A DNA stretch of 32,000 bases from Candidatus Methylomirabilis limnetica (GCF_003044035.1 NZ_NVQC01000016.1:128133-160132); one strand, 5' to 3'; shown: positions 6,143-32,000, counted from the first letter of the stretch. Translations and numbers: made by a program. The notes: generated by a model from the sequence alone, not told the origin.

Positions 6143-7634
6143 GGGGACCGAGTACCAGGTTCTCCACGGGTCTGTCGATGTAGAGGTCCATGATGTCCGA
6201 TACGATTCCAGACATGTGAGACCCGGGGATCTATTCGTGTGCATCAGTGGGTTCAGGCGGGATGGCCACGACTTCCTCCAAGCCGCATGGGCCGCGGGTG
6301 CCGTTGCAGCCCTGGTGGAGCGAAGCGACCTGCCGGAGGGTGCACTACGGGGTGGGACGGTGGTAAGGGTAGCCAATGCCCGGCAGAGCCTTGCCATGGT
6401 CGCGTGTCGATTCTATGGTCATCCCTCGCATAAGCTCGCCATGGTGGGGGTGACAGGGACTAACGGCAAGACGACCACCACCTACCTGATCGAGTCGGTG
6501 CTGCGACGCGCAGGACATCAGGTCGGGCTGATCGGGACTATCGGGTATCGCTGCAACGGGGTAGAGATAGAGGCGGCGCGGACGACACCGGAGTCCTACG
6601 ATCTGCAAGCGCTTCTCAATCGGATGGCGCATCTGGGCACTGACAGCGTCGTCATGGAGGTCTCGTCCCACGCCCTGGCCCTGCATCGCGTTGATGACTG
6701 CGAGTTTGACGTGGCCGTGTTCACGAATCTGACACAGGACCACCTGGACTTTCATGGCACCATGGAGGCGTACCGAAGCGCAAAGCTTTCTCTGTTTGAG
6801 GGGCTAGGTGTCGGGTCAACGAAAGCGACGGAAAAGGCGGCGGTCATCAATATGGATGATCCGGCTGCTGACCTCTTTCTCGGGGCGACGCGTGTGAGAC
6901 GCTACACCTACAGCGTGCAACGGCCGGCGGACCTGTCGGCCACCGATATCGATATGGGACCGGATGGAGTTCGGTGCCAACTGCACACCCCGTGGGGGAC
7001 GACGGCGATTCACTCTCCGTTACTGGGGGGCTATAACCTGTCCAACATCCTGGCAGCCGCTGCTACAGGGTTACATCTCGGCGTGGATCTGTCAGCGGTG
7101 GCAGACGGGATTGCCGCACTCCACCACGTCCCGGGTCGGTGTGAGCGAGTAGAGGGGGGACAGGAGTTCAGGGTGATCGTCGATTATGCGCACACCCCTG
7201 ACGCCCTGCGACGCGTCCTTCATATGGCACGGCAGTGCTGTCCGGGACGCCTGATTGTCCTGTTCGGGTGCGGGGGAGATCGAGATCGGGGGAAGCGTCA
7301 AATTATGGGAGAAGCGGCTCTGCAGTTAGCCGACTTTACTGTGATCACCTCCGACAATCCCCGCAGTGAGGACCCTCATCAGATCATCGAGGAGGTCGAG
7401 GCTGGGGCGAAAAAGGTATGGGGTCAGGGAAAGGGCTATGTTACAATTTTAGACCGGGCAATGGCCATTCGTGAGGCTCTCTCGCTGGCGGGACAAGGTG
7501 ACATGGTGGTGATCGCGGGGAAAGGGCATGAGGCCTATCAGATTCTTCACGATCGCACGATTCCCTTTGATGACCGACAGGTGGTCAGAGAGGCGCTTCG
7601 CGAGCTGGGGTTCAACCGTGAAGACAGGGTATAG
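6120..7634 (+). CDS. murE: UDP-N-acetylmuramoyl-L-alanyl-D-glutamate--2,6-diaminopimelate ligase
   Basis: GVTGTNGKTTTTYL P-loop, DYAHTPDAL, and DNPRSEDP (the DNPR motif typical of meso-DAP-adding MurE). GTG start overlaps the ftsI end by 23 nt. Confidence 0.92.
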   Translation: MQLFALIEGTEYQVLHGSVDVEVHDVRYDSRHVRPGDLFVCISGFRRDGHDFLQAAWAAGAVAALVERSDLPEGALRGGTVVRVANARQSLAMVACRFYGHPSHKLAMVGVTGTNGKTTTTYLIESVLRRAGHQVGLIGTIGYRCNGVEIEAARTTPESYDLQALLNRMAHLGTDSVVMEVSSHALALHRVDDCEFDVAVFTNLTQDHLDFHGTMEAYRSAKLSLFEGLGVGSTKATEKAAVINMDDPAADLFLGATRVRRYTYSVQRPADLSATDIDMGPDGVRCQLHTPWGTTAIHSPLLGGYNLSNILAAAATGLHLGVDLSAVADGIAALHHVPGRCERVEGGQEFRVIVDYAHTPDALRRVLHMARQCCPGRLIVLFGCGGDRDRGKRQIMGEAALQLADFTVITSDNPRSEDPHQIIEEVEAGAKKVWGQGKGYVTILDRAMAIREALSLAGQGDMVVIAGKGHEAYQILHDRTIPFDDRQVVREALRELGFNREDRV

Positions 7635-7647
7635 GGTGAAGGGTATT
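7627..7647 (+). repeat. Heptamer array GGGTATA GGGTGAA GGGTATT (single arm), followed by TGGTGGTGGTG
   Basis: Direct reading. The murE stop TAG (7632-7634) spans units 1 and 2. Confidence 0.8.
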
Positions 7648-7657
7648 TGGTGGTGGT

Positions 7658-8425
7658 GTGCTGATACGTGTCGGTGACCTGGACACCCATTTTACCGTGT
7701 GGGGAGAGGGGAGGCCGATAGTTCTCCTTCATGGGTGGGGTACCTCAGCCGAGTCCCTGGGTACAGTCGCCAAGGCTCTGGAGGATCGATTTCGGGTGTA
7801 CGCCCTCGATCTACCTGGTTTTGGCTGGACGCCATCGGCTGCTACGGTGTGGGGGACATGGGAGTATGCCTCCTATGTCGAGGCATTTATGGATCGCCTC
7901 AACATCTCGGTGGCCAGTCTGGTCGGCCATTCATTTGGAGGCCGAATCGCGCTGGCCCTGGCTGCCAAGTGGCCCGATAGGGTCAAGAGTCTTGTTTTGG
8001 TGGCCAGCGCAGGGATCCGCCCGAGACGAGGGCCTCTGTTCCGCATGAAGGTTGGAGCCGCGAAGCTGGCGAAGCAGGTGTTTTCGCTGCCTATGTGGGG
8101 TAGGCTGGGCGAGCGAGTGATTGCCGAACTCTATCAGCGGATGGGGTCGCGGGACTATCGGAACGCCGGAGCACTACGCGCTACGCTGGTCAAGGTCGTG
8201 AGCGAAGACCTCCGGGGGATCTTGTCGTCTGTTCGTACGCCTACACTGATTATCTGGGGAGACCGGGATCAGGAGGTGCCGTTCTCCTCGATGGAGATTA
8301 TGGCGCGCGGGATACAGGGCTCGCGGTTGGAGGTGTTCGAAGGGGCCGGCCATTTCCCGTTTGTTGACAGCCCGGACCGTTTTGGCCGGTTGGTAAGGGA
8401 GTTCTTGTGCCAGGACAGCCAGTGA
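7658..8425 (+). CDS. alpha/beta-fold hydrolase (serine esterase/hydrolase family)
   Basis: 255 aa. Oxyanion HGWG, nucleophile elbow GHSFGG, and late Asp (WGDRDQEV) and His (GAGHFPF) consistent with a Ser-Asp-His triad. Only GTG 7658 is available as a start. Confidence 0.8.
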   Translation: MLIRVGDLDTHFTVWGEGRPIVLLHGWGTSAESLGTVAKALEDRFRVYALDLPGFGWTPSAATVWGTWEYASYVEAFMDRLNISVASLVGHSFGGRIALALAAKWPDRVKSLVLVASAGIRPRRGPLFRMKVGAAKLAKQVFSLPMWGRLGERVIAELYQRMGSRDYRNAGALRATLVKVVSEDLRGILSSVRTPTLIIWGDRDQEVPFSSMEIMARGIQGSRLEVFEGAGHFPFVDSPDRFGRLVREFLCQDSQ

Positions 8426-10128
8426 TGCGGTCGGGTGTGGTACTTGGACCTTCACTCGCAGGCCGGGCCGTCACTGGTCTTTTGCCATATATGGCGGTCG
8501 TTATAATGCGCCATCTGGATCTGATATACCTTGCCCAGCTGGAGCGTTACAACAGTGCGCGCCTGCGTGGTTGGATCGCCAGGCACTGGGGCCTGGTTCT
8601 GAACGGCCGAGGGGCCCTCGTTCAGGTGGCGGTCTTAGGGGCCGGAATTCTCCTTGCGTTGTTACCTCTCCCTGTTTTTCCCGGCTTAAGGCATGCCGGG
8701 ACAGGCACGTTTTACATTATCTGGCTGGCCGCCGGTATGTGGCTGAGATCCCGGTGGTCCTCGCTGCAGGTCAGTCAGCAACTGCAGTGGACATCTCGAA
8801 CGGTACGCTTAGTAGCAGTCACGTTCCTCCTTGCGGTGGTGGCCATGCTTGTAACCTCCGGGTTGACTGTACTCTTACTGTCCAGACTCATGGTGGCCCC
8901 TCTCGCCCTCCTTGTCGGTATAGGCTTGGCTACCGGCCTGCTTGTGATGTCCGAGATTGCGGCGGGCACGGTCCTCGTGGCAAACCTGAGCCTCGCTCCA
9001 CTGGAGCAGGCGGTCAATCAACGCTTCTATGCGCAGGCTAAAGTGCGCATGCGTCAGTATCCCGGGGAGGTCGTCGGGATCACTGGAAGCTATGGAAAGA
9101 CGACGACGAAGTTCATCGCCGCGACGTTGCTTCAGAAGCGCTACTCGGTCTTTAAGACGCCTGACGGGGTCAACTCCACCATGGGTATCGTTCGGGTTGT
9201 CCGCGAGGCGCTTCGGGACGATCACCAGTTTTTCGTCGTCGAGGTGGCGGCCTACGGCCCCGGCGAGATCAAGGAGGTGTGCGAGATCCTGCGGCCCCGG
9301 ATCGGTATCCTCACGGCGGTTGGGGTCCAGCACCTCGAGCGGTTCGGCACGCCGGAACGGATCGCCGAGGCGAAGTATGAGCTGATCGATTCGCTTCCAC
9401 CGGATGGCTTAGCGATCGTGAACGCTGACGATCCAGGCGCTCTGCGATTGGCCGAACGCGCGAGGCGGGAAGGTCGACGCGTGATCTTGTACGGGGTCGG
9501 TGATGACGAACGGGATCTGGACGTTCGGGGGAAAGACGTCAAGCTCTCCAGCCATGGCTCGGCCTTTCGCGTGGAGACCGGGTATGGCGCGGCCATGTTC
9601 GAGACCAAGCTGCTCGGGGGCTGGAACATTGCCAATATCCTGGGGGCGACGGCTGCTGCCTTAGAGTGCGGTGTACCCCTGGAGGAGATTGCCGACGGGG
9701 TGAAGTCTCTTACGCCGGCGCCCAAGCGCCTGGAGCTTCGCGAAGAGGGTGGGGTCATCAAGCTGATCGATGTGGCCAACGCCAATCCGCTTGGGGCCCA
9801 GATGGCCCTGGAGGTCCTCAGCCAGTTTAAGGGGGGCTCGAAGATCCTGATCACGCCGGGCTTGGTGGAGTTAGGCCAGATCGAGGCGGAGGAGAACCGC
9901 CGGTTTGGCCGAGCTGCCGCTGCGGTCTGCGATTACGTCCTGTTGGTCGGGCCACAGCAGACACTACCGCTGCGTGAAGGGCTTCGCGAGGGTGGGTTTG
10001 CCGATAGCCGGATCCTGGTGGCCCGGCACAGCGGTGAAGTGACTGACCACCTCAAGGCGATCGTCCGAGAGGGCGATGTCCTGCTGTACGAGAATCGACT
10101 GCCTGATACGTACCTGGAGCTCGCATGA
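8425..10128 (+). CDS. murF: MurF-like Mur ligase (UDP-MurNAc-tripeptide--D-Ala-D-Ala ligase position) with a polytopic membrane N-terminal region
   Basis: P-loop GITGSYGKTTTKF at nt 9076, then LTAVGVQHLERFG and NANP motifs and a MurF-like C-terminal domain. About 215 residues with 4-5 hydrophobic helices precede the P-loop. ATG 8425 overlaps the hydrolase TGA (TGATG). An alternative GTG lies at 8407. Confidence 0.75.
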   Translation: MRSGVVLGPSLAGRAVTGLLPYMAVVIMRHLDLIYLAQLERYNSARLRGWIARHWGLVLNGRGALVQVAVLGAGILLALLPLPVFPGLRHAGTGTFYIIWLAAGMWLRSRWSSLQVSQQLQWTSRTVRLVAVTFLLAVVAMLVTSGLTVLLLSRLMVAPLALLVGIGLATGLLVMSEIAAGTVLVANLSLAPLEQAVNQRFYAQAKVRMRQYPGEVVGITGSYGKTTTKFIAATLLQKRYSVFKTPDGVNSTMGIVRVVREALRDDHQFFVVEVAAYGPGEIKEVCEILRPRIGILTAVGVQHLERFGTPERIAEAKYELIDSLPPDGLAIVNADDPGALRLAERARREGRRVILYGVGDDERDLDVRGKDVKLSSHGSAFRVETGYGAAMFETKLLGGWNIANILGATAAALECGVPLEEIADGVKSLTPAPKRLELREEGGVIKLIDVANANPLGAQMALEVLSQFKGGSKILITPGLVELGQIEAEENRRFGRAAAAVCDYVLLVGPQQTLPLREGLREGGFADSRILVARHSGEVTDHLKAIVREGDVLLYENRLPDTYLELA

Positions 10129-11435
10129 GTGGCGCCGCCAGACGCATAGGGCTGATCTTCGGAAGTCGCTCGGTGGAACGAGAGATTTCGATCATGACCG
10201 CCAGTAAGATCTATGAGGTCCTGCTCTCATTGCAGGACCAGTTCGAGACGCTGCCGATCTTTATTACGGCAGAGGGCACATGGCTTACCGGCGAGGCGGT
10301 TCGGGATCTGTTGACGGTCGATGCCGAGATACGAAAGCTGGCGGAACGAAGCGTTGTGGCGGGAACGGCTGAGCGATCGAAGCTCGACGCGGAAAAGCTG
10401 CGGTTGAATCGGGATCGATACATACCCCTGCTTGACAACCTGGACCGGGGCCAGAGCGCGACGGGGGTTGATCCGCTCTTTCTGGCGCCGGACCCATCGG
10501 TCGGCACGTTGGTGCCGCAGCAGGAGCGAAAAGGCTGGCTTCGCAAACAGCTCCACCCCACAATCGACGTCGCCTTCCCGGTCATTCATGGGACGCATGG
10601 CGAGGATGGAACGATTCAGGGTCTGTGTGAATTGGCCGATCTGCCGTATGTGGGGGCTGGGGTCACCGCCTCGGCCATAGGAATGGATAAGATTATCTCC
10701 AAGCTCATCTTTCAGGGCGCAGGCCTTCCTGTTGTTGAGGGGGTCGGTATCACCAGACGCGAGCTGTTGGAGGATGAGGCGGCCGTTGCGAAGGGGATTG
10801 AGCGCAGGTTGAGCTACCCGGTGGTAGTCAAGCCTGCCGTGGCCGGTTCCAGCGTTGGCATAGGTATGGCTCATAATGCGGGCGAAGCGCTGAGCTTGGC
10901 GAAGCTCGCAATGCGCTTCAGCTCCCGCGTGCTGATAGAGCGGGCTGTTGAACAGCGGATCGAGGTGCAATGCGGCGTCCTGGGCAATCACGCGTTGACC
11001 GTCTCGGAATGTGAAGAGATCATCAACTCGGGCGAGGTTGTGGGCTACCGCGACAAGTACCCGGAGGACACACAGCCGGGAAGCGCGGATCTCGCGCCGA
11101 GCATCATTCCCGCCAGGATTCCAAAGACCCTTGCAGACGAGATACGCTCCATGGCAGCAGCAGCCTTTAAGGCGATCGACTCGCGCGGGATCTCCCGGGT
11201 CGATTTTCTTATCGACTCGGCCGCGATGAAGCCGTACGTCAATGAGGTCAATACCATGCCGGGGTCGCTTTCCTTTACCCTCTGGGAGGGAAGCGGGGTG
11301 AAGCCTGCGGAGCTTGTTATTCGTCTGGTGGAATTGGCGCTTGAGGCCCATCGAGAAAAGCGCTCAACCCATTTCAAATCGACAGAGGGCAGGGCGTTGG
11401 TGGATCGGCGGCATCTGGTGACGCCGGGCAAATAG
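10125..11435 (+). CDS. ddl: D-alanine--D-alanine ligase (long form, 436 aa)
   Basis: IGLIFGSRSVEREIS, FPVIHGTHGEDGTIQGLCELADLPYVGAGV and NEVNTMPG motifs (ATP-grasp Ddl). ATGA overlap with the murF stop. Confidence 0.9.
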   Translation: MSGAARRIGLIFGSRSVEREISIMTASKIYEVLLSLQDQFETLPIFITAEGTWLTGEAVRDLLTVDAEIRKLAERSVVAGTAERSKLDAEKLRLNRDRYIPLLDNLDRGQSATGVDPLFLAPDPSVGTLVPQQERKGWLRKQLHPTIDVAFPVIHGTHGEDGTIQGLCELADLPYVGAGVTASAIGMDKIISKLIFQGAGLPVVEGVGITRRELLEDEAAVAKGIERRLSYPVVVKPAVAGSSVGIGMAHNAGEALSLAKLAMRFSSRVLIERAVEQRIEVQCGVLGNHALTVSECEEIINSGEVVGYRDKYPEDTQPGSADLAPSIIPARIPKTLADEIRSMAAAAFKAIDSRGISRVDFLIDSAAMKPYVNEVNTMPGSLSFTLWEGSGVKPAELVIRLVELALEAHREKRSTHFKSTEGRALVDRRHLVTPGK

Positions 11436-11514: not shown

Positions 11515-12597
11515 ATGCTGTATCACCTGCTTTTCCCATTGCATCAAAGCTACGCTGTCTTAAACGTCTTCCGGTACGTGACCTTCCGTACGGCCGGGGC
11601 CATCCTGACCGCGCTGCTGATCAGTTTGCTGTTGGGACCTGCGCTGATCCGCAAGCTTCAGGAGTTGCAGATCGGTCAAAGCATCAGGGACGACGGGCCA
11701 GCGGGGCATCTGCAGAAGGCCGGGACGCCTACGATGGGTGGGCTCCTGATCCTGGCCTCTGTGCTCATCGCCACGCTGCTCTGGGCGAATCTGACCAACC
11801 GGTTCGTCTGGCTTGCCCTGTTTTGCACGGTCTGGATGGGGGCGGTGGGGTTCATCGACGACTACCTGAAGGTGGTGTCCAAGAATAGCAAGGGACTCTC
11901 GGTCAGAACAAAACTGTTGTGGCAGGTGATTCCCAGCCTACTCATTGGACTCTTCCTGTACATCAACCCGGTTGATCCATTTACGACGAAGCTGACTATC
12001 CCCTTTCTCAAGGACTGGATGCCCGATCTGGGCTGGGGCTATGTCCTGTTCGTGGCGCTGGTCATTGTTGGCACATCTAATGCGGTGAATCTGACCGACG
12101 GCCTCGATGGATTGGCTATCGGCCCGATCTTGATGACCGCTGCGGCGTATACGGTCCTGGCGTACATTGCAGGGCATGCCAGCATCGCTCACTACCTGCA
12201 GGTGATCTTTGTGAGAGGGAGCTCTGAGCTCACCGTTTTTGGCGGTGCCATCGTCGGGGCCAGCCTGGGATTCCTCTGGTACAACGCGTACCCCGCGCAG
12301 CTCTTTATGGGCGACACCGGCTCTTTGGCGCTTGGGGCCGCCTTGGCTACGCTCGCTGTTCTGGTCAAGAGCGAGTTGCTCCTGCTCATCGTCGGGGGGG
12401 TATTCGTGGCAGAGGCCATCTCGGTGATCATGCAGGTCTTCTCCTACCGGACTACCGGCCGACGAGTTTTCAGGATGGCGCCCCTCCATCACCACTACGA
12501 GCTGAACGGGATGGCGGAGCCGAAGATCATTGTCCGGTTCTGGATCGTCTCCTTTATCCTTGCCCTGCTCTCGCTCACCACGTTGAAGTTGAGGTGA
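11515..12597 (+). CDS. mraY: phospho-N-acetylmuramoyl-pentapeptide transferase
   Basis: 360 aa. [25 protein letters not shown]-terminus, [23 protein letters not shown]. Confidence 0.95.
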
Positions 12598-12611
12598 AGG
12601 CGTTGAGAAAG

Positions 12612-12707
12612 GTTTCGAGCTTCGAGTTTCGAGTTTCGAGTGCCACATGTCAGGTTTCACGTTACGAGTTTGGCTTACTCGAAACCTGGAACCCGGAACC
12701 CGGAACT
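12612..12707 (+). repeat. Second-family heptamer element: GTTTCGA-type x4 (12612-12639), 20-nt core CACATGTCAGGTTTCACGTT (12644-12663), CGAAACC/YGGAACC x4 (12680-12707)
   Basis: Direct reading. Partially self-complementary. Homologous to the element at 16342-16410. Confidence 0.8.
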
Positions 12708-12721
12708 GCATGGTGGTAACC

Positions 12722-14104
12722 ATGCTGGATCTGGCCGGTAAACGGGTGGTGGTCGTTGGGTTGGCGCGATCCGGGGAGGCGGCCTGCCGCCTATTGCTCA
12801 AACAGGGCGCCACGGTCATCGGCACCGACCGCAGGGGTAAGCGTGAGATCGGCGCTGACCTCTGCAGCCTGGAGCAGGACGGGGTCAGTCTTGAGCTGGG
12901 CGAGCAGTACCTGCACTCCTTGCTCTCGGCCGATCTCGTCGTGGTAAGTCCGGGGATCGATCTGCGTGAGCCGCTGTTTCAGCGGGTTCGTGAGGTGGGC
13001 ATCCCGCTCATCGGTGAGGTCGAACTGGCCTACCGGTACAGTGAAGCCACATTCATCGGGATCACCGGGACCAACGGTAAGAGCACCACCACGACCCTTC
13101 TCGGCGCAATTCTGAAGCACGCCGGCATGCCTTCGCATGTGGCCGGCAACATCGGTACCCCCCTCTGCCGAGTGGCGCCTTCCCTCGCGGCGGGTGAGTG
13201 TGTGGTCGTGGAGCTATCGAGCTTTCAATTGGAAACGATCGAAGAGTTCAGGCCGCGCGTGGCGTTACTGCTGAATCTCGCTCCTGATCATCTTGATCGC
13301 TACGATCAGGTCGAAGACTATTACCAGGCCAAGGCTCGCATCTTCGAGAATCAACGGCCGTCCGACTTTGCCGTCATCAATGCGGACGATCCGCTGGTTC
13401 TTCAGGTGTCAGCACGGGCCCGAGGACGGAGGATCGCATTCAGCCGGACCAGGCCGCTCGATACAGGGGCGTATGTTGAAGGCGATCAGCTCATGCTGGC
13501 CCTTGACGGGAGGCGAGAGGCCATCTGCCGGGTGTCCGAACTCCAGATCCAGGGGGTACATAACCTGGAGAACGCCCTGGCTGCCGGCCTCGCGGCGGCG
13601 GTAGCCGGCGCCCCCACAACAGCGATCCGGATAGCGCTCACCAGTTTCGAAGGGCTGGAACATCGTCTGGAGTTTGTCGCGGAGATCGACGGCGTTCGCT
13701 ACGTCAACGACTCCAAAGGGACCAATGTTGGGGCGGTTGTCCGATCGCTGGAGAGTTTTACGAACCCCGTTGTGCTCATCGCCGGCGGCAGGGACAAGCA
13801 TGGCGATTTCGCGCCGCTCATCCCCCTGGTCCGCGAGCGGGTCAAGCGGCTGATCCTGATCGGTGAAGCCGCTGAGACGCTGCGGCGAACGCTGGCCCCC
13901 GCGTGTCCGACGGAGGATGCGTCCAGTCTCGAGGAGGCCGTTCGGCGCGCCGCAGCCGCCGCATCACCAGGAGAGGTTGTGCTGCTTTCGCCGGCTTGCG
14001 CCAGCTTCGATATGTTTACTGATTTCGAAGAGCGAGGACGCGTGTTCAAGGCGGCGGTACGGGAGCTTCTGCCCCCCGCTTACAGTATACCAGGGCAAGC
14101 ATGA
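12722..14104 (+). CDS. murD: UDP-N-acetylmuramoylalanine--D-glutamate ligase
   Basis: LAGKRVVVVGLARSGEAA Rossmann-type N-terminus, GITGTNGKSTTTTL P-loop. Alternative in-frame starts are ATG 12710 and ATG 12647 (inside the repeat). Confidence 0.9.
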   Translation: MLDLAGKRVVVVGLARSGEAACRLLLKQGATVIGTDRRGKREIGADLCSLEQDGVSLELGEQYLHSLLSADLVVVSPGIDLREPLFQRVREVGIPLIGEVELAYRYSEATFIGITGTNGKSTTTTLLGAILKHAGMPSHVAGNIGTPLCRVAPSLAAGECVVVELSSFQLETIEEFRPRVALLLNLAPDHLDRYDQVEDYYQAKARIFENQRPSDFAVINADDPLVLQVSARARGRRIAFSRTRPLDTGAYVEGDQLMLALDGRREAICRVSELQIQGVHNLENALAAGLAAAVAGAPTTAIRIALTSFEGLEHRLEFVAEIDGVRYVNDSKGTNVGAVVRSLESFTNPVVLIAGGRDKHGDFAPLIPLVRERVKRLILIGEAAETLRRTLAPACPTEDASSLEEAVRRAAAAASPGEVVLLSPACASFDMFTDFEERGRVFKAAVRELLPPAYSIPGQA

Positions 14105-23193: not shown

Positions 23194-24864
23194 ATGGGTC
23201 AGATTCCTGCCGAATACCTGCCTCCGATAGATCTCTGGCCGCAGCGCATCTACGCGCTCCCGGAATTCGTACACCTCCCTCAGCGGTTCAATAGCACCGA
23301 GGAGTTGCTGGATAAGACAGTTGTCGCAGGGAACGGCGACCGAGTGGCCCTCTACTTCGAGGACAAGCAGATCCCGTACAAGGCGCTGCTGGATCAGGTC
23401 AATAGGCTAGGGAGTGCGCTCAGGCGGCTGGGGATCGAGGAGACGGACCGGGTGGTATTGCGCCTGCCGAACATCCCACCGGCAATCGTGGCAAACTTTG
23501 CGGTCCTGAAGATCGGTGCGGTGATCGTCCCGACCTCCGTCCTCTTTTCCAGGGCCGAAATCGCGCACATCTGCAACAGCACGCAGGCCAAGGCGATCAT
23601 CGTTGCCGCCACACTGCTGGAGGAGTTCGAGCAGGCGCGGCCCCTGCTTCACACTGTCAGGCATGTCATTGTCGTCGGTGGAGCGCAGGAGGAGATCGAG
23701 CGGAAGGGCTATCTGGCATATCAGGCACTGCTTGATGGGGGCGATCCGACGTGCGATCCGGTGCGGCGTGATCGGTTGGATGTTTCGGTCATCCTCTTCA
23801 CCTCCGGAACGACGGGGCCGCCGAAGGGGACGGTCCACTTCATGGAAGAGGCGCTGATCGTCCCTGACAGCTTCGGCAAATACTGCTGGCGCGTAACTGA
23901 AGAGGACGTGCTCCTCAGTCCGGCTCCACTGGCAATGGCGGCCGGTTACTCCGTCGCGACTGCCATCCCGTATCGATTCGTGGCAGCCCTCTCCTTGTTA
24001 CCGCGCTTTACGCCGGAGGCGGCGTTCGAGACGATCCAGAACCACAAGGTCACCATCCTCTCGGCCCTCCCAACCGCCTATCGCAAGATGCTTCAGGTGC
24101 CGGATGCCCGGACGCGCTACAACCTCAGTTCGCTCAAGTTGTGCACGGGCGGCGGCGAGTCCTTGACCGCTCAGACCTACTTTGACTGGAAGGCGAAGTT
24201 CGGCATCGAGATCTTCGAGGGACTCGGCACCACCGAGATGATGTTCGTATTCGTCAGCTCGGCTGGGCCGAGAAAGGTCAAGCCGGGATCGATCGGCCCC
24301 GCCGTTCCGGGCTACGAACTCAGGGTGGTCAACGAAGAGGGGAGGGACTGCCGGCCTGGCGAACCCGGCGAGTTGCTGGCCAGAGGTCCAACGGGGACCG
24401 TCTACTGGCGCGATCCAGAAGCGCAACGGCGCGCCGTGACGGAAGGTTGGTGCCGCGCCGGGGATATGGTGACCGTGGACGAAGATGGCTATATCTCGTT
24501 CCTCACCCGCGAGGATGACCTGATCAAGAGTTCCGGGTACCGGATCGGCCCTGAAGAGATCGAGGATGTCCTGCTGACCCACGCGGCCGTGGCTGACGTA
24601 GGCGTGGTCGGTCTGCCTGACCCGGTCATGGGGCAGCGAACGAAGGCGTTTGTTGCGCTCAAAGCCGGTCAGCAGCCTTCCGAAGGGCTCAAGGCGGAGT
24701 TGATCGAGTTCTGCACGGGGAAGCTTGCCGTGTACAAGCTGCCGCGTGAGGTAGAGTTCCTGGATCGGATGCCGCGTGCCACCGGCCCCGGCGGCCCTGG
24801 CACCGGCAAGTTGCTCCGGCGGCTCCTCCGTCAGCGAGAGCAGGACAAACCGAAGGCAGAGTAG
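23194..24864 (+). CDS. AMP-dependent acyl/aryl-CoA ligase (benzoate/2-aminobenzoate-CoA-ligase-like)
   Basis: 556 aa. AMP-binding motif LFTSGTTGPPKG, GLGTTEM, GDMVTVDEDGYISFLTREDDLIKSSGYRIGPEEIE. AGGAGG precedes the ATG. Confidence 0.85.
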   Translation: MGQIPAEYLPPIDLWPQRIYALPEFVHLPQRFNSTEELLDKTVVAGNGDRVALYFEDKQIPYKALLDQVNRLGSALRRLGIEETDRVVLRLPNIPPAIVANFAVLKIGAVIVPTSVLFSRAEIAHICNSTQAKAIIVAATLLEEFEQARPLLHTVRHVIVVGGAQEEIERKGYLAYQALLDGGDPTCDPVRRDRLDVSVILFTSGTTGPPKGTVHFMEEALIVPDSFGKYCWRVTEEDVLLSPAPLAMAAGYSVATAIPYRFVAALSLLPRFTPEAAFETIQNHKVTILSALPTAYRKMLQVPDARTRYNLSSLKLCTGGGESLTAQTYFDWKAKFGIEIFEGLGTTEMMFVFVSSAGPRKVKPGSIGPAVPGYELRVVNEEGRDCRPGEPGELLARGPTGTVYWRDPEAQRRAVTEGWCRAGDMVTVDEDGYISFLTREDDLIKSSGYRIGPEEIEDVLLTHAAVADVGVVGLPDPVMGQRTKAFVALKAGQQPSEGLKAELIEFCTGKLAVYKLPREVEFLDRMPRATGPGGPGTGKLLRRLLRQREQDKPKAE

Positions 24865-25036: not shown

Positions 25037-25489
25037 ATGGCCATTACACCCGACCGAAACTCATCCCACCTTGCAGGTGAGTACTTCGTAGCTGCGGAGC
25101 TCTATCGGCGCGGATACTCAGTTGCGATGACCTTGGGTAATGCGAAGGCCATCGACCTGTTCGCTGAGCACGATGGCCGCACAGTGAATGTGCAAGTCAA
25201 GGCAATCGCGCGCCGGAAGAACGTCGGCTGGCCCATCATGCAGGACAGGGTAGTACCGGGAGTGATGTACGTGTTCGTGTGCTTGAACGAACCGCCTGAT
25301 GCTCCGACGTACTTCATCGCCACCGCCGAGGAAGCGAGGTTGAAGGTCAAGCAGTACTCAACCCGAGGCATCATTGACCTCACTACCCTTCGCAACGAAC
25401 AGTTCCTTGGACGCTGGGACAAGATCGAGGCGGCTCTGGCGCCCGCCATCGTCCGAGCGACGGACAGATCCCGGCGCGCGTCCGGCTAA
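25037..25489 (+). CDS. hypothetical protein, PD-(D/E)XK nuclease-like fold predicted
   Basis: 150 aa. GEYFVAAELYRRGY (helix with Glu), AIDLFAE (Asp) and VNVQVKA (Q-x-K) occur in the order expected for a restriction-endonuclease-like core. The assignment rests on motifs only. Confidence 0.5.
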   Translation: MAITPDRNSSHLAGEYFVAAELYRRGYSVAMTLGNAKAIDLFAEHDGRTVNVQVKAIARRKNVGWPIMQDRVVPGVMYVFVCLNEPPDAPTYFIATAEEARLKVKQYSTRGIIDLTTLRNEQFLGRWDKIEAALAPAIVRATDRSRRASG

Positions 25490-25618
25490 CAAACAATGGA
25501 GCCGGCACGCCTGTTGTCTCGTGCAATCATATCGCTGATGTGCGCGGCTCATTCGTAGCCCAACAACACAGCGAGCATGTCGCAACCGCGGGGGCGCACC
25601 TTCCGGTCAGACGCGCGC

Positions 25619-25663
25619 CCGAGCGTCATCGATCTTGACGCTCGGCTCCGCCATCGATAGAGT
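25619..25663 (+). promoter_or_regulatory. Candidate vapBC promoter with overlapping palindromic operator
   Basis: 10-bp inverted repeat CCGAGCGTCA (25619-25628) / TGACGCTCGG (25636-25645). -35 TTGACG 25635-25640, 17-nt spacer, -10 TAGAGT 25658-25663. Confidence 0.45.
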
Positions 25664-25698
25664 GATTGTGCAACACTATTCGTATCGATGGAGGTCGT

Positions 25699-25905
25699 AT
25701 GGAGACGGTGGCGGTATCGCCCAAGTTCCAGGTCGTCATTCCGAAGCGGATTCGGGAAAAGCTGGGTCTGTCGCCCGGTCAGAAGGCACAGGCGATTCTG
25801 TACGGGGATCGAATCGAGCTCATCCCCGTACGGTCGATCAAGGGTATGCGAGGGTTCCTACAGGGCATCGCCACGACGGTCGAGCGTGAGGCGGATCGCC
25901 GATGA
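25699..25905 (+). CDS. vapB: AbrB/SpoVT-family antitoxin (VapB-type)
   Basis: METVAVSPKFQVVIPKRIREKLGLSPGQK (looped-hinge-helix/SpoVT-AbrB signature). ATG sits 4 nt after GGAGG. ATGA overlap with vapC. Confidence 0.8.
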   Translation: METVAVSPKFQVVIPKRIREKLGLSPGQKAQAILYGDRIELIPVRSIKGMRGFLQGIATTVEREADRR

Positions 25906-26279
25906 ATGTTGTCGACTCGAGTGCGTGGCTGGAGTATTTCGCGAACGACTCGAATGCCTCGTTCCTCGCTCGGGCGATCGAACGGACGGAGAAGTTGCTA
26001 GTTCCATCCCTGGTGGTCTACGAGGTGTTCAAGAGGGTCCTCCAGCAACGAGATGAGGGCCACGCGCTCCAGGCGGTGGCTGTGATGCAGCAGGGTACCG
26101 TGGTTGATCTCGACGCCCGGCTAGCGCTCCTGGCCGCTCGCATCAGCCTGGAACGTAAGCTGCCGATGGCTGATAGCGTTTTTCTCGCCACAGCCCGAGT
26201 CTACGGGGCAACGGTGTGGACACAGGACGCGGATTTCAAGGACCTGCCCGGCGTCCAGTTTCGGAGGCACACGCCTTGA
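25902..26279 (+). CDS. vapC: PIN-domain ribonuclease toxin VapC
   Basis: 125 aa. Acidic residues at the canonical PIN positions: VVDSSAW (D5), YEV (E41), MADS (D91), TQDADF (D109). Confidence 0.85.
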   Translation: MNVVDSSAWLEYFANDSNASFLARAIERTEKLLVPSLVVYEVFKRVLQQRDEGHALQAVAVMQQGTVVDLDARLALLAARISLERKLPMADSVFLATARVYGATVWTQDADFKDLPGVQFRRHTP

Positions 26280-26354: not shown

Positions 26355-27176
26355 ATGGACAACGATCTACACTTCGGTGATGCGTATCCGCCGCGCGAGA
26401 TTGCGCGGAAAGTCGAGGGCCTCGGTGTGGCGAAGGCGCGCACCGATGCACTCACGCTGCTCGTCCTGGCCGTGCTGGCCGGCGCCTTCATTTCGCTAGG
26501 GGCTCTCTTCTTTATCGTCGTGGTGACCAAATCCACCCTTGGCTTCGGCATGACGCGGTTGGTCGGCGGCCTGAGCTTCTGCCTCGGACTGATCCTCGTC
26601 GTTGTCGCGGGCGCCGAGCTGTTCACCGGGAATAACCTCATCGCCATGGCCTGGGCGAGTAGACTGATCGGTACCCGAGCGGTCATGCGCAACTGGTTCC
26701 TGGCTTACCTGGGTAATGTGGGCGGCTGCCTGGCTACGGTAATGCTCGTCGTGTGGGCCAACGTTGCCGATCTGGGCGGGGGTGCTGTCGGTGAGACGGC
26801 CCTCAATATCGCTCGCGCGAAGGCCGATCTTTCGGTTATCGAGGCCTTCACGCGCGGCGTTTTGTGCAACGCGCTGGTGTGTCTGGCGGTGTGGCTTGCT
26901 ATGGGCGGGCGTAGCGTGACCGACAAGATTCTGGCAATTCTCTTTCCCATTACCGCATTCGTGGCCATGGGCTTCGAGCACTCGATCGCAAACTGGTTCT
27001 TCCTGCCCCTCGGGCTCGCGCTGGATGGGGAAGGTACGGTGTCGGTCATCGGAGCAACGAGAAATATCGTCGCCGTGACCGCCGGCAACGTGGTCGGTGG
27101 GACCCTGCTGGTCGCCGGCGTGTACTGGGTGGCCTACTTACGAGGTGAGCGTCGGCCAAACGATGGGCCCTCCTAA
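26355..27176 (+). CDS. formate/nitrite transporter (FNT) family channel
   Basis: GAELFTGN and GFEHSIAN signature motifs and six hydrophobic helices. It aligns end to end with my recollection of FocA/NirC from ATG 26355. The track start GTG 26283 is probably too far upstream. Confidence 0.85.
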   Translation: MDNDLHFGDAYPPREIARKVEGLGVAKARTDALTLLVLAVLAGAFISLGALFFIVVVTKSTLGFGMTRLVGGLSFCLGLILVVVAGAELFTGNNLIAMAWASRLIGTRAVMRNWFLAYLGNVGGCLATVMLVVWANVADLGGGAVGETALNIARAKADLSVIEAFTRGVLCNALVCLAVWLAMGGRSVTDKILAILFPITAFVAMGFEHSIANWFFLPLGLALDGEGTVSVIGATRNIVAVTAGNVVGGTLLVAGVYWVAYLRGERRPNDGPS

Positions 27177-27226
27177 ATCCCGACTGGAGTGCGACCCTGT
27201 CGCCCGCGGGGTGCCCCCTACAAATC

Positions 27227-28201
27227 ATGTTAGACGCGCTTAAACATGGGCGGTCCAACCCCTCGCTACAGTCGACCGCCTATCGGGCCACCAAGCCCGT
27301 CCTCCTGGCGCCGGCGGGCAGCCTCGCGGCTGCGCAGGTGGCGCTAGAGGCCGGTGCCGACGCCATCTACGTTGGCCTCAAAGGCTTTAGCCGCGGCGGA
27401 CCCAGGAGCGAACTGACCTCCCTGGCGCTTCAGGACGTGCTGGTGGCGGCCCATGCGCAGGGCCGCCACGTGCAGGTTGCCCTCAATATCATCCCTAGCC
27501 AAGCCGAACGGCGAGACCTCGTGGAAAAGGTCGGGGAGCTGCTCGGGTGGGGGATCGATGGGGTCATCGTGAACGACGCGGGTCTTCTGGCTGAACTCCG
27601 TAGTCGGTACCCCAAACTTAGTATCACCGCCAGCATCGGCTGCGCCATCATGAACGAGGCCGATGTCGCCTTCTATCGCGACCTGGGGGCCGACGCGGTC
27701 GTACTTCCCGGTACCCTGACGCCTGATGAGATCGCTGCCTTCGCGCAGGTTCCCGATGTATTGATCGAAGTGATGAGCCATATGGTGCAAGAGTTCATTC
27801 TATTGGGCAGATGCTGGATGCCGAGCTATTACCGGCTGAATTCGAGTCCTATGGCATCCCAGTGTGAGGGCGTCAGTCGCCTGATGGGGAGCGTGAAGCG
27901 GGGAGGCGCCGGGGTGTGCTTCAAGATCTGCGAGCAGCCCTGGGAGCTTTACCGGGGAGAGCGATGCGTGGCCACACGGCTTCTGCCAAGCCGTCAGATC
28001 AGCGCGATCAATTACCTGGCCGATATCCTCAATGCCGGTGTCGATGTTGTCAAGCTCCAGGGCAGAGGTCTCGCAGCCGACCTGCTCGCCCCGCTCGTGC
28101 AGCGCTATCGTCTGGCAATCGATTCCTGGATGGCAGGAGAGCCCTTGCCGGCCTTTGCAGAGCCTTGCCTGGAACCTTCCTGGACGGTGATGCGCCGGTG
28201 A
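27227..28201 (+). CDS. peptidase U32 family protein, short UbiU-like form
   Basis: LLAPAGSLAAAQVALEAGADAIYVGLKGFSRGG N-terminus, VKLQGRG near the C-terminus, Cys-rich central segment. No SD before ATG 27227. Confidence 0.8.
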   Translation: MLDALKHGRSNPSLQSTAYRATKPVLLAPAGSLAAAQVALEAGADAIYVGLKGFSRGGPRSELTSLALQDVLVAAHAQGRHVQVALNIIPSQAERRDLVEKVGELLGWGIDGVIVNDAGLLAELRSRYPKLSITASIGCAIMNEADVAFYRDLGADAVVLPGTLTPDEIAAFAQVPDVLIEVMSHMVQEFILLGRCWMPSYYRLNSSPMASQCEGVSRLMGSVKRGGAGVCFKICEQPWELYRGERCVATRLLPSRQISAINYLADILNAGVDVVKLQGRGLAADLLAPLVQRYRLAIDSWMAGEPLPAFAEPCLEPSWTVMRR

Positions 28202-28222
28202 GGTCAGGATGAAGGAGGAATA

Positions 28223-29182
28223 GTGGTGCAGGTCTTTGAGTTGAACACGACCATCTCGAATCTGCGGGACCTCACCGAATCGGATCTGAGTCCATACGAT
28301 GCCATTTACCTTGGCAACATCACCTGTCGGCTGTACGAGGCGAACCTGCTGGAGCGTCTCGATGACCTGCGGGAGGCGATAGCGATCGTGAAGGGCCGAG
28401 GGCAGAAGGCGTACGTCACCACCTATGCCGCGCCGCGCAACGACAACCTGCCGCAACTCCGAAAGGTTGTGGCGGTAGCCGTGGAGACCGGGGCAGATGC
28501 CGTTGAGGTCCATAACCTCGGGGTCTTGAGGATCGTTCACGAGGAGTACCCCGATCTTGCTGTCCATATCGGCGGCTTCGCGAATGTCTATACCGACGGT
28601 GGCGCTGCCGTCCTGAAGCGATACGGGGCAGTTCGCATCACGCCCAACTACGAGCTGAGCCTGGAGGAGATCGGCGAGATCCATCGCCAGGTTGGGCTGC
28701 CGATGGAACTACTGGTTCATGGCAAGATGCCGCTCGGCATGTCAGACGACTGCTTTCTGCTGGAGTATGAGCAGGCCTGGGGGGTGACGTGTCCGACGCT
28801 CTGCCAGCAAGAGCTGTTCCTGAAGCAGGGCGATTGGGCGATGAAGTCAATCGGGAAAGGGGTCATGAGCGGGAAGGATGTCTGCCTGCTGGAACACTTG
28901 AGGCAACTGATGACCGAGGGGCATTCCTGTTTCCGGATCGAAGCGGCTTCAGAGAGTCCTGCCTACCGACTGGAGATTGGCCGGGTCTACCGCGAGGCGT
29001 TGGAGGCTGCCCTTGCAGGCAGGGACGGCGAGGAAGAGCGGTGGTGGGACACGATCAGACGCCATGCGCGAATTGGCCTGTGCAACGGTTTTTACTTTGG
29101 CACCTCTGGAATGGCCTACCATGGCGTGCAGCACCCGGGCGCGGACACTACGGAGGATCAACGGAGCGGTGTAGGGCAATGA
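28223..29182 (+). CDS. peptidase U32 family protein, UbiV-like form
   Basis: Lacks the ELLAPAG N-terminus. Has DAIYLGNITCRLY, HGKMPLGMSDDCF and C-x12-C-x3-C (DDC..TCPTLC). AAGGAGG lies upstream of GTG 28223/28226. Confidence 0.7.
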   Translation: MVQVFELNTTISNLRDLTESDLSPYDAIYLGNITCRLYEANLLERLDDLREAIAIVKGRGQKAYVTTYAAPRNDNLPQLRKVVAVAVETGADAVEVHNLGVLRIVHEEYPDLAVHIGGFANVYTDGGAAVLKRYGAVRITPNYELSLEEIGEIHRQVGLPMELLVHGKMPLGMSDDCFLLEYEQAWGVTCPTLCQQELFLKQGDWAMKSIGKGVMSGKDVCLLEHLRQLMTEGHSCFRIEAASESPAYRLEIGRVYREALEAALAGRDGEEERWWDTIRRHARIGLCNGFYFGTSGMAYHGVQHPGADTTEDQRSGVGQ

Positions 29183-30153
29183 TTGAGCTGCTCGCTCCCG
29201 CAGGTAATCTGGAGATGGCGGCGGAGGTGACGCGGGCTGGGGCCAACGCCATCTATGTGGGACCGCGAGGCTGGAGCCGACGCCGTGACACCTTTGAGAT
29301 GGAAGATGGCGCCGTCCGTGAGGCGATTCGGGTCGCCCATGATGGCGGAGCCAAGCTCCGAGTGGCATGCAATACTCACATGCAATCCAAAGAGATTCCG
29401 GCGCTGCTCAGTCGAATGGAGCGCTTCGTCATGGACGGTGTTGATGGCGCCATCATGGCCGATATCGGTGCGATCGCGGCAGTGCATCGGCGTTTTCCAG
29501 AGCTGCCCCTCCATGCTAGCATCGGGGCTAATATCCTGAACGACGCTGACGTGGCCTTCTACCGGGAGATCGGCGTCTGCCAGGTTGTGGCCGACACCAA
29601 GCTGACGTTGCGGGAGCTCACCTCCAGAAAGGCGCAACTCGACGTCGGGATCGAGATCTTGATCCATGCGAATGCCTGCTATACCTATCTTGGCAAGTGC
29701 TGGATGTCGCCCTACTATCGGCTTGAACGAACGATCGACGAGGCGGGTAAGGACCTCTTCAAGGGGAGTCCGAACCGGGGCGGGCTTGACTACCGCGTCT
29801 GTCTTGAGGCCTGGCAGCTTTACAGCGGCGACATCAAGCGGGAGGACCGCGTGGCGCTCAGGAACGAGGCGTTCTTCCTGCTAGAGGATATTCCGCACTT
29901 GATCGATCTGGGCGTCCGCTGTCTGAAGATCCAGGGCCGCGAGTACACCACGGCGCTTGTGGGGAACATCGTCAGGTTCTATCGCGAGCTGCTTGATGCC
30001 TATGTCGCCAACACGCCGGGTGAGCCGTTCGATCTGAACTCCTGGAAGGCGCGCTCGGCCGTGATCGAGGCCGAGCGGGATAGACAGCGGCACGCAGGGA
30101 CCCTGGCCTTACTGGCCGAGGCCAAGCTTCCTGTCACTGCTCAACCCGCATGA
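29179..30153 (+). CDS. peptidase U32 family protein, short UbiU-like form
   Basis: MIELLAPAGNLEMAAEVTRAGANAIYVGPRGWSRR, C-x6-C (CYTYLGKC), LKIQGREY. ATGA overlap with the preceding gene. The 130-aa upstream extension in the track ORF (28789) overlaps that gene and is rejected. Confidence 0.8.
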   Translation: MIELLAPAGNLEMAAEVTRAGANAIYVGPRGWSRRRDTFEMEDGAVREAIRVAHDGGAKLRVACNTHMQSKEIPALLSRMERFVMDGVDGAIMADIGAIAAVHRRFPELPLHASIGANILNDADVAFYREIGVCQVVADTKLTLRELTSRKAQLDVGIEILIHANACYTYLGKCWMSPYYRLERTIDEAGKDLFKGSPNRGGLDYRVCLEAWQLYSGDIKREDRVALRNEAFFLLEDIPHLIDLGVRCLKIQGREYTTALVGNIVRFYRELLDAYVANTPGEPFDLNSWKARSAVIEAERDRQRHAGTLALLAEAKLPVTAQPA

Positions 30154-30194: not shown

Positions 30195-30282
30195 GTCATT
30201 GCGAGCGACCAACAGGAGCGCGGCAATCTCACCGTACTTTCACTGCGAGATTGCTTCGGTCGCTATGCTCCCTCGCAATGAC
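30195..30282. repeat. GC-rich palindromic repeat (GTCATTGCGAG...GCAATCTC / GAGATTGC...CTCGCAATGAC)
   Basis: Arms 30195-30230 and 30247-30282 are complementary at both ends with a divergent middle. It lies between convergent genes. Confidence 0.8.
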
Positions 30283-30346: not shown

Positions 30347-30679
30347 TTAGCCAGCGGGGGCTGGCGCTGCGGTAGGGGCCGGCGCTGCGGCGGCCGCCAG
30401 CGCTGCGGCAGCCGGCTTTTCTTCCACAGGTACCGGTGTCGGCTTTGTGACCGACAGTTGCCACCGGATCAACCCGCCTAGAATCTTCTTCGGGGTGGCG
30501 ACGGTATAGCCCTGGCTGGTTGCCCACTGCTGTATCTCCCCTACCAGCGATTGCTCTGGCACGACAATCACCAGCTCGTCGTCTGCTGCCAACTCCTGCA
30601 GCGCCAGCTTGGCCTGGGGCAATCGGTAGTGACTCATCTCTCCTAGCAACTGAAAGTATCGCGTCATCGCTGTCATCAT
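30347..30679 (-). CDS. TusA/SirA-like fold protein lacking the catalytic Cys, with an Ala/Pro-rich C-terminal tail
   Basis: 110 aa. AAGGAGG directly upstream of the ATG cluster. LLGEMSHYRLPQAKLALQELAADDELVIVV..EIQQWATSQGYTV follows the TusA beta-alpha-beta pattern, but the CPxP motif is replaced by SHYRLP. Confidence 0.5.
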   Translation of the reverse strand: MMTAMTRYFQLLGEMSHYRLPQAKLALQELAADDELVIVVPEQSLVGEIQQWATSQGYTVATPKKILGGLIRWQLSVTKPTPVPVEEKPAAAALAAAAAPAPTAAPAPAG

Positions 30680-31219: not shown

Positions 31220-32000
31220 TTATGATCTTTCTTCGTTTGATTTGAGTTGTTCGATATGTCGCTCTAATTCCTCATCACTGGCCCAGCCCATGAAGTGCAG
31301 CGTAATCATTTCAAAGGTTCTTCTGGTGGGTTTTCGTCCTGTCCAAAGGGTGATGAGCATGCCGGCGATCAGTGCACAGTAGATTTGGATGGTTAACCCG
31401 TTTTCGGATAGGGCGACAAGGTGATTACAGCCCAAGACACATTTGAACCACCGGAAGAAGAGCTCGACCTGCCATCTGCGCCTGAAGAGCAGCGCGATGG
31501 TTTCTGCGGGCACGTCCAGGAGGTTCGTTGCCAGCAGGAAGGTATAATCGACATCCCTGGTGCGGCAGGTTTTTTTGCTGGAGACCCGTGAGGGACGGCG
31601 AACGTTCTCATCCCCTTCATGGAACACCTGGATGATCCTGAGGGGATGCGGGCAGTCATCTTTTTTGCTGTCACAGCCTAAGGTAACGAGGAGGTCTTTT
31701 TGGACCCCCGCTAATCTGTCATTTTCCGTGAGGGGTTTTTCTTCGAGGATAGAGTAGGCGGCATTATCTCGTAAACGAATGACGAAGGCGCTTCGGGCAT
31801 TGATGATGTCATCTAGGAGTTTGTATTCCGCGTAGCCACAATCGAGCAGATAGACCGTATCGGGAGCGAGGAACGTTTTAAGGACCTTCTTTTCATTGCC
31901 GTTGCCGTGGGTGATGGCGGCCCTTGTCGGGACCTGTTTGCGGATGTCCAACTCCAGGTGGAGTTTGGCTGCCCGGTGTTCTTCATCTTGCCACAGGTTG
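31220..32000 (-). mobile_element. IS4-family DDE transposase gene, N-terminus beyond the window edge
   Basis: The frame stays open to nt 32000. Contains LLDCGY and the [Y/F]-x2-R-x3-E-x6-K signature LFRRRWQVELFFRWFK. TAA stop at 31220-31222. Confidence 0.8.

Follow-up and report, generated by a model that had tools for sequence, protein, structure and literature searches.

Three contiguous genes for short U32-family proteins, named here g1, g2 and g3, lie on the plus strand of a 32-kb chromosomal piece of Candidatus Methylomirabilis limnetica, phylum NC10/Methylomirabilota (NZ_NVQC01000016.1:128133-160132; 'the window' below means this whole stretch of 32 000 nucleotides). We saw that this trio keeps its order in related genomes of at least three phyla, in two of which it is linked to genes for an acyl-coenzyme A (acyl-CoA) ligase and CoA-transferases. 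The best reading of the trio is a heteromeric, O2-independent U32 hydroxylase that has a third subunit and stands in a new context, one linked to CoA; more specifically, we lean slightly towards an iron–sulfur (Fe–S) enzyme that would act in the CoA-thioester metabolism of a carboxylic acid.

That U32 'peptidases' are O2-independent hydroxylases, with prephenate as the source of the oxygen atom, is a recent insight. To our knowledge, their substrates are of two kinds only, ubiquinone precursors and RNA pyrimidines, and neither direct activity nor the role of the Fe–S cluster has yet been shown in vitro. With a third form, made of three strictly conserved genes, the chemistry and ecology of the family would broaden, since in bacteria abundant in soil and groundwater the trio is tied to CoA-ligase/CoA-transferase genes. 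What we observed directly is the anatomy of the three genes, their paralogy, their conserved order, their cysteine patterns and their neighbourhoods. Complex formation, Fe–S binding, use of prephenate, hydroxylase activity and the class of substrate are what we infer by analogy with characterised U32 proteins.

The U32 trio and its conservation

The trio and the gene of an FNT-family channel that precedes it are four intact open reading frames (ORFs) on the plus strand (Table 1), as an earlier note on this DNA had described. Each U32 protein ends at ∼320 amino acid residues and contains PF01136 as its sole Pfam domain (cut-off 22.4 bits); the Pfam search found neither a TrhP-type C-terminal domain nor the RlhA-type DUF3656 in any of the three, in agreement with the note's description of them as the short U32 form lacking the long C-terminal extension. 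The ATGA overlap of the last two genes was also read correctly there, and it should couple their translation.

We scanned one genome per species with a pattern made from an alignment of 13 g2 sequences; relatives were found in 173 genomes, and the best 80 were analysed as loci. The order g1-g2-g3 on one strand was present in all 80 loci, except where a contig ended inside the trio or where ORFs were split. These loci belong to Methylomirabilota (including Rokubacteria), to Acidobacteriota (Thermoanaerobaculia, Terriglobales, Acidobacteriaceae, Korobacteraceae and Sulfotelmatobacter) and, in one case, to Anaeromyxobacteraceae; a few bear bin labels (Patescibacteria, Thermoplasmata) that are unlikely for their sequences. 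A fixed gene order across 80 genomes is far beyond chance. The most conserved member is g3 (67–74% identity to the window in Acidobacteriota loci), followed by g2 (62–70%) and g1 (48–55%); outside the genus, orthologs of g1 have 49–57% identity. The nearest database relatives of the window proteins are 86–98% identical, and those of them with a named source come from Methylomirabilis or NC10. A plasmid search with g2 returned only relatives with <28% identity.

Identity among the trio members is 17–35% (35% for g1 versus g3, 17–20% for g1 versus g2), and orthologs of each paralog are kept in 71–79 genomes. The three genes are thus old paralogs; a recent local duplication with decayed copies, one of the outcomes that the earlier note had named as fatal to its own proposal, is excluded.

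Several loci showed local peculiarities. In a Terriglobales genome (L172) a gene for a Crp/FNR-type regulator (6934-7686, minus strand) is divergent from g1, and g1 itself is broken up into one ORF of 118 residues and another of 190. In a group of mostly Methylomirabilota loci a Cys-rich ORF of ∼87 residues (CxxC...CxxC), not found in the window, directly follows g3 (L011:12041-12304 and its equivalents in L012-L014, L040, L061, L075 and L079); in the same group the protein unk211, introduced below, is shortened to ∼124 residues and lacks its Cys-rich N-terminal part. Comparison by hhalign of the small proteins flanking the trio in different lineages (ABM-like c32, c27 and the Cys-rich c47) showed no homology among them.

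Cysteine patterns and catalytic residues

The ortholog alignments were split by paralog (n=71 for g1, n=79 for g2 and n=71 for g3, with the window copy counted), and each paralog was seen to have its own fixed and distinct set of cysteines.

In g2, C35 together with C177-X12-C190-X3-C194 makes up the UbiV ligand motif CXnCX12CX3C, the four residues being aligned with C39, C180, C193 and C197 of UbiV. They are invariant in the 79 orthologs as well as in 26 distant representatives. Two further cysteines, C221 and C287, are invariant in the 79 orthologs; C287 is within the C-terminal GLCNGFYFG, which matches ...DCNGYW of UbiV. We characterise g2 as a UbiV-type partner with a complete four-Cys site predicted to hold a [4Fe-4S] cluster.

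In g3, E159, C167 and C174 align with E162, C170 and C177 of TrhP, which are essential by mutagenesis, as are the equivalent residues of RlhA (PMC6599085). E159, C167, C174 and C208 are invariant in 71 orthologs, C248 is kept in 68 of 71; the pattern is thus CX6C followed by X33-C, with no Cys at the position of UbiU C193 (X16). In g1 an invariant glutamate, E189, replaces the first Cys that CX6C has in TrhP, UbiU and g3. Its C139 (70 of 71 orthologs), C196, C231 and C235 are invariant, while C213, at the X16 position, occurs in 1 of 71, the window copy itself. Neither g1 nor g3 matches the full ligand set of UbiU, CX6CX16CX38C (C169, C176, C193 and C232). The complete hydroxylase set, Glu plus CX6C, is present in g3; g1 and g2 have the Glu and the second Cys only (g2 in the manner of UbiV). 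These patterns suggest that g3 is probably the catalytic subunit.

A natural fusion of a g3-like half with a g2-like half (P0134, 632 residues) supports a contact of U-type and V-type subunits as in UbiU-UbiV. For g2 the AlphaFold model has a pLDDT (predicted local distance difference test) score of 91.9, and its best Protein Data Bank (PDB) match is 5d88, the one U32 structure solved so far. The g3 model also matches the fold of 5d88; its TIM barrel is confident. PDB sequence searches with g2 and g3 gave no match at E ≤ 0.001, and fold searches with the two models returned only 5d88, an uncharacterised U32 structure, and generic TIM barrels; hence there is no solved U32 hydroxylase to compare them with.

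Placement within the U32 family

The N-terminus (L)LAPAG...GA(D/N)AIYVG is present in g1 and g3, and the UbiV-type N-terminus, with a Cys in ...AIYLGNITC..., in g2. In a neighbour-joining (NJ) tree, indicative only as it carries no support values, g2 fell within the UbiV-type clade and g1 and g3 were sisters, apart from UbiU, TrhP and RlhA. The U-V-U arrangement that the earlier note had read from these genes therefore holds for the UbiV-type g2 and the U-type sisters g1 and g3; it does not hold in that g1 is no standard UbiU-like protein, having Glu for the first Cys of CX6C.

Scores against the curated family models were low. The UbiU model NF047963 gave 109.6 bits for g1, 118.8 for g3 and 61.2 for g2 (cut-off 440); the UbiV model NF047965 gave 79.4 bits for g2 (cut-off 275); the TrhP model NF011996, the best NCBIfam match of all three proteins, gave 96–127 bits (cut-off 534). 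The trio is thus outside the characterised U32 clades, and it is not orthologous to UbiU and UbiV: no linked ubi, SCP2 or prenyltransferase genes were seen in the 80 loci.

U32 domains have been split into 12 subfamilies (Kimura 2017). Ca. M. oxyfera has four U32 proteins (D5MIP8, D5MIQ0, D5MIQ1 and D5MIQ2), all of them assigned to PepU32#6 (Sakai 2019, Supplementary Data 1), and the window proteins are 86–88% identical to those of a metagenome-assembled genome labelled Ca. M. oxyfera. As all four M. oxyfera proteins carry that label, the trio would belong to PepU32#6 too; this is an indirect, organism-level assignment made through M. oxyfera. PepU32#6 has been published so far as a subfamily name only, with no function proposed, and a literature search on U32 together with CoA ligase, benzoyl-CoA, Acidobacteria or Methylomirabilis returned nothing relevant; no publication that we found goes further than the subfamily label in describing the trio.

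Linkage to a CoA-ligase/CoA-transferase module

We grouped the ORFs of the 80 loci into clusters and annotated the families that recurred. Of the conserved partners of the trio, the window has just one, a gene for an AMP-forming acyl-CoA ligase (ACL), 2.4 kb upstream; the earlier note, which pointed to the FNT gene, had missed it. ACL orthologs occur within 10 kb of the trio in 30 of the 80 loci (26 of the 55 loci that are at least 14 kb long). Fourteen of them have 70–90% identity to the window ACL (Methylomirabilota and unlabelled contigs) and another 14, in Acidobacteriota, 60–63%. The nearest solved structures are those of anthranilate-CoA ligase (4wv3) and benzoate-CoA ligases (2v7b and 4eat).

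The usual module has five genes: two for family-III CoA-transferases (CoAT3), one for a Zn-ribbon protein of ∼125 residues (ZnRib), one for an uncharacterised protein of ∼211 residues (unk211) and ACL. In L016 we saw the order IclR - CoAT3 - CoAT3 - ZnRib - unk211 - ACL - g1 - g2 - g3; in L068, DAHPS/CM ... g1 - g2 - g3 - Amidohydro_2 - CoAT3 - CoAT3 - ZnRib - unk211 - ACL - PAS - hydrolase. These are the same genes in a different order, and both strings were borne out by the collection's own gene calls and by Pfam matches. ZnRib, unk211 and Amidohydro_2 proteins had no informative relatives in Pfam, NCBIfam or PDB. The group of loci with most of the Thermoanaerobaculia has another arrangement: hydrolase, enoyl-CoA hydratase, a small protein, a divergent MarR, the trio and a solute-binding protein. 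Regulators of IclR and MarR type along with a ligase of benzoate/anthranilate type fit aromatic-acid metabolism.

A reciprocal search started from unk211 in metagenome contigs found the complete five-gene module in 37 of 80 loci; nine loci extended 4 kb or more beyond each end of the module, and the trio was present in six of these nine. The trio is therefore genomically linked to the CoA-ligase/CoA-transferase module in both directions and in two phyla. Besides, in six Acidobacteriota genomes and one metagenome locus a DAHP-synthase/chorismate-mutase fusion (DAHPS/CM) is encoded directly upstream of g1; the product of such an enzyme is prephenate. In one Acidobacteriota locus, seen both as L001 and as L018, a gene for a sigma-54 activator is upstream of the trio.

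Other genes recur around the module. A ribonucleotide-reductase-R2-like/AurF-like diiron gene adjoins it in metagenome loci L136, L141, L143, L151, L155, L158 and L169 (no U32 trio in the flank examined) and in genomes L055, L058, L077 and L080/L172; one could speculate that the diiron protein is an O2-dependent counterpart of the U32 hydroxylase. In loci of Thermoanaerobaculia type (L035:11686-13713, L067:13184-14341 and others), genes of two types recur near the trio: ADP-forming acetyl-CoA-synthetase/GNAT (Pat-like) genes, in 15 loci, and histone-deacetylase-like genes. In Rhodopseudomonas palustris such a pair is known to control acyl-CoA ligases through the acetylation of lysine.

Proposed function

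We propose that g1, g2 and g3 would be subunits of one heteromeric Fe–S enzyme hydroxylating an sp2 carbon without O2, with g2 as the UbiV-type partner, g3 as a catalytic subunit of UbiU/TrhP type and g1 as a second, diverged U-type subunit whose ligand set has been rebuilt. The substrate would be neither ubiquinone nor RNA but most likely a carboxylic acid, probably aromatic, presented as a CoA thioester that ACL would make; this choice of a CoA-linked, probably aromatic acid is suggested by gene context. Aerobic aryl-CoA hydroxylases are a loose precedent. To judge from UbiU-UbiV, TrhP and RlhA, the expected source of the oxygen atom is prephenate, which is the O donor for UbiUV (PMC10990095) and is needed for TrhP and RlhA to function (PMC6599085). 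A multi-subunit anaerobic hydroxylase, one of two readings offered by the earlier note, remains the best description.

In its sharpest form the proposal is that the trio is the first U32 hydroxylase for small-molecule CoA-thioester metabolism, a three-subunit, prephenate-dependent enzyme that would hydroxylate an aromatic acyl-CoA without O2. This we put forward only tentatively, regarding it as possible though rather unlikely. If true, many Acidobacteriota and Methylomirabilota from peat, groundwater and anoxic soils would possess such an enzyme, and it could account for anaerobic ring hydroxylations that molybdenum hydroxylases do not explain; it would also mean that three specialised paralogs can make up a U32 enzyme and that, in one of the three, Glu can take a place in the cluster site.

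Several observations weigh against this proposal. Seventeen of the 55 large loci have no CoA enzyme within 10 kb, eight Acidobacteriota among them (L018, L019, L026, L031, L033, L036, L041 and L049). The window itself has no CoA-transferases, ZnRib, unk211, Amidohydro_2 or IclR, and its ACL is parted from the trio by toxin-antitoxin-type genes and the FNT gene. In the TIGR02262 benzoate-CoA ligase family the window ACL scores 322.9 bits and its L068 ortholog 338 bits, under the curated cut-off of 375.25, so 'aromatic' is a lean and not a result. The chorismate-mutase adjacency is limited to one lineage and could reflect a housekeeping gene. Only three Cys are strictly invariant in the motif region of g3, and the stretch that contains them (166-230) is modelled with pLDDT <50, so cluster binding by g1 and g3 is a prediction only. 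A catabolic route that spent one prephenate per turnover would be expensive; what Ca. Methylomirabilis is known for is methane oxidation, not the degradation of aromatics; and the members of PepU32#6 are known from sequences alone.

Alternative explanations

The trio could form two alternative heterodimers, g1-g2 and g3-g2, which would share the V-type partner and act at different positions or on different substrates, with no three-subunit complex. This is a variant of the proposed enzyme and is compatible with the substrate suggested above; we find it unlikely, if by no means far-fetched. Precedents are the UbiU-UbiV heterodimer (PMC6747719) and the TrhP1/TrhP2 pair (PMC6599085); the g2 gene is placed between two U-type genes; and fusions of g3-like with g2-like halves (P0134) and possibly, in part, of g1-like with g2-like halves (P0209) are consistent with both pairings. 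However, the three genes are always found together in fixed order in 80 genomes, and the absence from g1 of a Cys essential to TrhP and RlhA suggests that its role is a modified one or not catalytic.

The pairing of U and V types and the UbiV cysteine motif could also indicate a hydroxylase of quinone biosynthesis, a functional analogue of UbiU-UbiV in Methylomirabilota and Acidobacteriota. A distant relative of g2 (∼30% identity) does occur in a UbiA-UbiE-V-U-O-methyltransferase cluster (L089). We consider this explanation quite improbable, as the scores against the UbiU (110–119 versus 440 bits) and UbiV (79 versus 275 bits) models are low, tblastn found no homolog of UbiA or UbiT in the window or in the 80 loci, and the latter gave just two weak UbiE-like matches and one weak O-methyltransferase-like match; the recurrent neighbours are CoA enzymes and regulators of catabolic type. 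The tblastn result also upholds the remark in the earlier note that no SCP2/UbiT gene is adjacent to the trio, and extends it to the related loci.

Most of the characterised U32 subfamilies act on RNA, an RNA role was proposed by the authors for other subfamilies, TrhP is the top NCBIfam score here and TrhP1/TrhP2 are a precedent for tandem paralogs. The trio might therefore be thought to make 5-hydroxyuridine 34 (ho5U34) in tRNA or 5-hydroxycytidine (ho5C) in rRNA, like TrhP, TrhP1/TrhP2 and RlhA. Against this are the scores of 96–127 bits versus the cut-off of 534, the lack of a TrhP C-terminal domain and of DUF3656, and the conserved linkage, which is to the CoA ligase/transferase module; nor was there a methyltransferase or a cmoA/B-type gene among the annotated recurrent families of the 80 loci, although no search was aimed at these. 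We hold an RNA hydroxylase to be distinctly improbable. The quinone and RNA explanations are both possible ones to which gene context lends no support.

Cooperation of the trio with the FNT channel, for instance by carrying into or out of the cell formate, nitrite or a small acid which the enzyme would use or make, is very improbable. The stop codon of the FNT gene is 50 nt from the ATG of g1 on the same strand, and no terminator-like site was found on the plus strand between them, in a scan that performed no better than it did on shuffled controls. In other nitrite-dependent bacteria, FocA-type channels have reportedly been put forward as transporters of nitrite. The protein in the window is closest to formate channels: it scores 216 and 193 bits against FocA models (cut-offs 290 and 440) and 99 bits against the NirC model (cut-off 293), and its nearest structures are FocA (3kcu, 171 bits), HSC (3tdo, 122 bits) and NirC (4fc4, 85 bits). 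Among the 80 scan loci an FNT gene accompanies the trio in L008 only, with a 917-residue ORF between it and g1, and is absent from the other 79; it is also near the trio in L003 (Methylomirabilis sp.), where a P-type ATPase gene intervenes. The adjacency that the earlier note had observed is real; still, only the closest relatives have the FNT gene beside the trio, and it is a lineage-specific neighbour and not a component of the conserved unit.

That the proteins are proteases of the collagenase type, as the family name 'peptidase U32' and database labels ('putative protease', 'U32 family peptidase') have it, is hardly credible: there is no sign of a secretion context, the invariant Fe–S-type cysteines and the catalytic Glu are common to hydroxylases, and the literature now takes U32 proteins with Cys motifs as hydroxylases (PMC6747719, PMC10990095 among others).

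Features of the window

Coordinates of the trio and of its surroundings are collected in Table 1.

Table 1. Features of the window in order of position
Feature	Position	Strand	Evidence or remark
panB, panC, then mraW-to-ftsZ cell-division/cell-wall (dcw) genes	462-22124		yggS-like gene next
AMP-forming acyl-CoA ligase (ACL)	23194-24864	+	PF00501 and PF13193
PD-(D/E)XK and PIN/VapC genes	25037-26279		inserted between ACL and FNT
FNT-family channel (FocA-like)	26355-27176	+	PF01226, 229 bits
g1, divergent U-type U32 subunit (predicted), 324 aa	27227-28201	+	PF01136, 100.8 bits
Shine-Dalgarno AAGGAGG of g2 (GTG start)	28212-28218	+	sequence inspection
g2, UbiV-type U32 subunit (predicted), 319 aa	28223-29182	+	PF01136, 129.3 bits
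ATGA overlap, g2 stop/g3 start	29179-29182	+	sequence inspection
g3, canonical U-type U32 subunit (predicted), 324 aa	29179-30153	+	PF01136, 128.6 bits
Imperfect inverted repeat, 41-nt arms (30195-30235 and 30242-30282), 73% complementary, 6-nt loop	30195-30282		repeat search
TusA-like gene, convergent with the trio	30347-30679	minus	
IS4-type DDE transposase gene	31220-31951		downstream of the trio

The inverted repeat lies in the gap that separates g3 from the convergent TusA-like gene; it may be a terminator for both directions, at which the unit ends, or else a REP-like element. A TusA-like gene near the trio is limited to the closest (Methylomirabilis-type) loci, L009-L015.

The PD-(D/E)XK and PIN/VapC genes and the transposase gene belong to a region that is variable and directly follows the dcw cluster; in the relative L003 other toxin-antitoxin genes (HicAB, HigB, TIR) take the place of the former. 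Within the dcw cluster (7658-11435) an alpha/beta-hydrolase gene (7658-8425) is located between murE and the gene of a 573-residue Mur ligase (8407-10128), and a long D-Ala-D-Ala ligase gene (436 residues) is ahead of mraY.

Comparison with known U32 systems

The closest characterised counterpart is UbiU-UbiV (E. coli YhbU/YhbV). Both systems consist of short U32 proteins (∼300–330 residues, no C-terminal extension) encoded by tandem genes of U and V types; g2 shares with UbiV the motif CXnCX12CX3C and the C-terminal CNG, g3 shares CX6C with UbiU, and the chemistry would be expected to be alike (Fe–S, O2-independent, prephenate as O donor). In contrast to UbiU-UbiV, to which its proteins are 22–27% identical with scores between one quarter and one third of the equivalog cut-offs, the trio has three genes instead of two and CoA-enzyme neighbours, with no linked UbiT/SCP2 or ubi genes; g3 has no equivalent of UbiU C193, and g1 lacks the first Cys. 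The hosts differ as well: NC10 and Acidobacteriota for the trio, Proteobacteria for UbiU-UbiV.

TrhP1/TrhP2 of B. subtilis (YrrO/YrrN; PepU32#5/#3) are likewise tandem U32 paralogs, both of which are required (PMC6599085), and the essential Glu and two Cys of TrhP and RlhA are kept in g3. Unlike this group, the trio, placed in PepU32#6 by the indirect assignment above, has neither a TrhP-type C-terminal domain nor DUF3656, and no methyltransferase partner among its annotated recurrent neighbours; unlike TrhP1/TrhP2, it has three paralogs, one of V type.

The published account of PepU32#6 took D5MIQ1 as the reference for that subfamily and found its cysteines only mildly or poorly conserved (Pelosi 2019, PMC6747719). 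The lack of well-conserved cysteines reported there contrasts with the invariant ones that we saw in each of the three paralogs; the earlier result may be due to paralogs having been pooled. With its Glu-for-Cys exchange in g1 and three-Cys site in g3, the trio offers a natural experiment on which cluster ligands are required, and soluble small-molecule substrates could make a long-sought in vitro assay of a U32 enzyme feasible.

More distant systems were also observed. Tandem arrays of five to seven short U32 genes are present in a metagenome contig (L088:1731-12853), in an Omnitrophota genome (L090:1048-6634 and 11744-12727) and in an Eremiobacterota genome (L091:711-5493); in the NJ tree their array positions are orthologous across the three. 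The arrays of L088 and L090 adjoin DUF5989, TPR and glycosyltransferase genes, that of L091 adjoins FlpD/FrhB/HdrA-like electron-transfer genes, whose products are possible electron acceptors. Another metagenome contig (L089:8315-12513) carries UbiA - UbiE - V-type U32 - U-type U32 - O-methyltransferase, which looks like a UbiUV-type pair within a quinone-biosynthesis cluster. All four contain tandem g2-like and g3-like members with 30–45% identity to the trio, from which the arrays and the two-gene L089 differ in their neighbours, having no CoA module. Together these arrangements suggest that assemblies of several U32 paralogs are a broader, unstudied theme.

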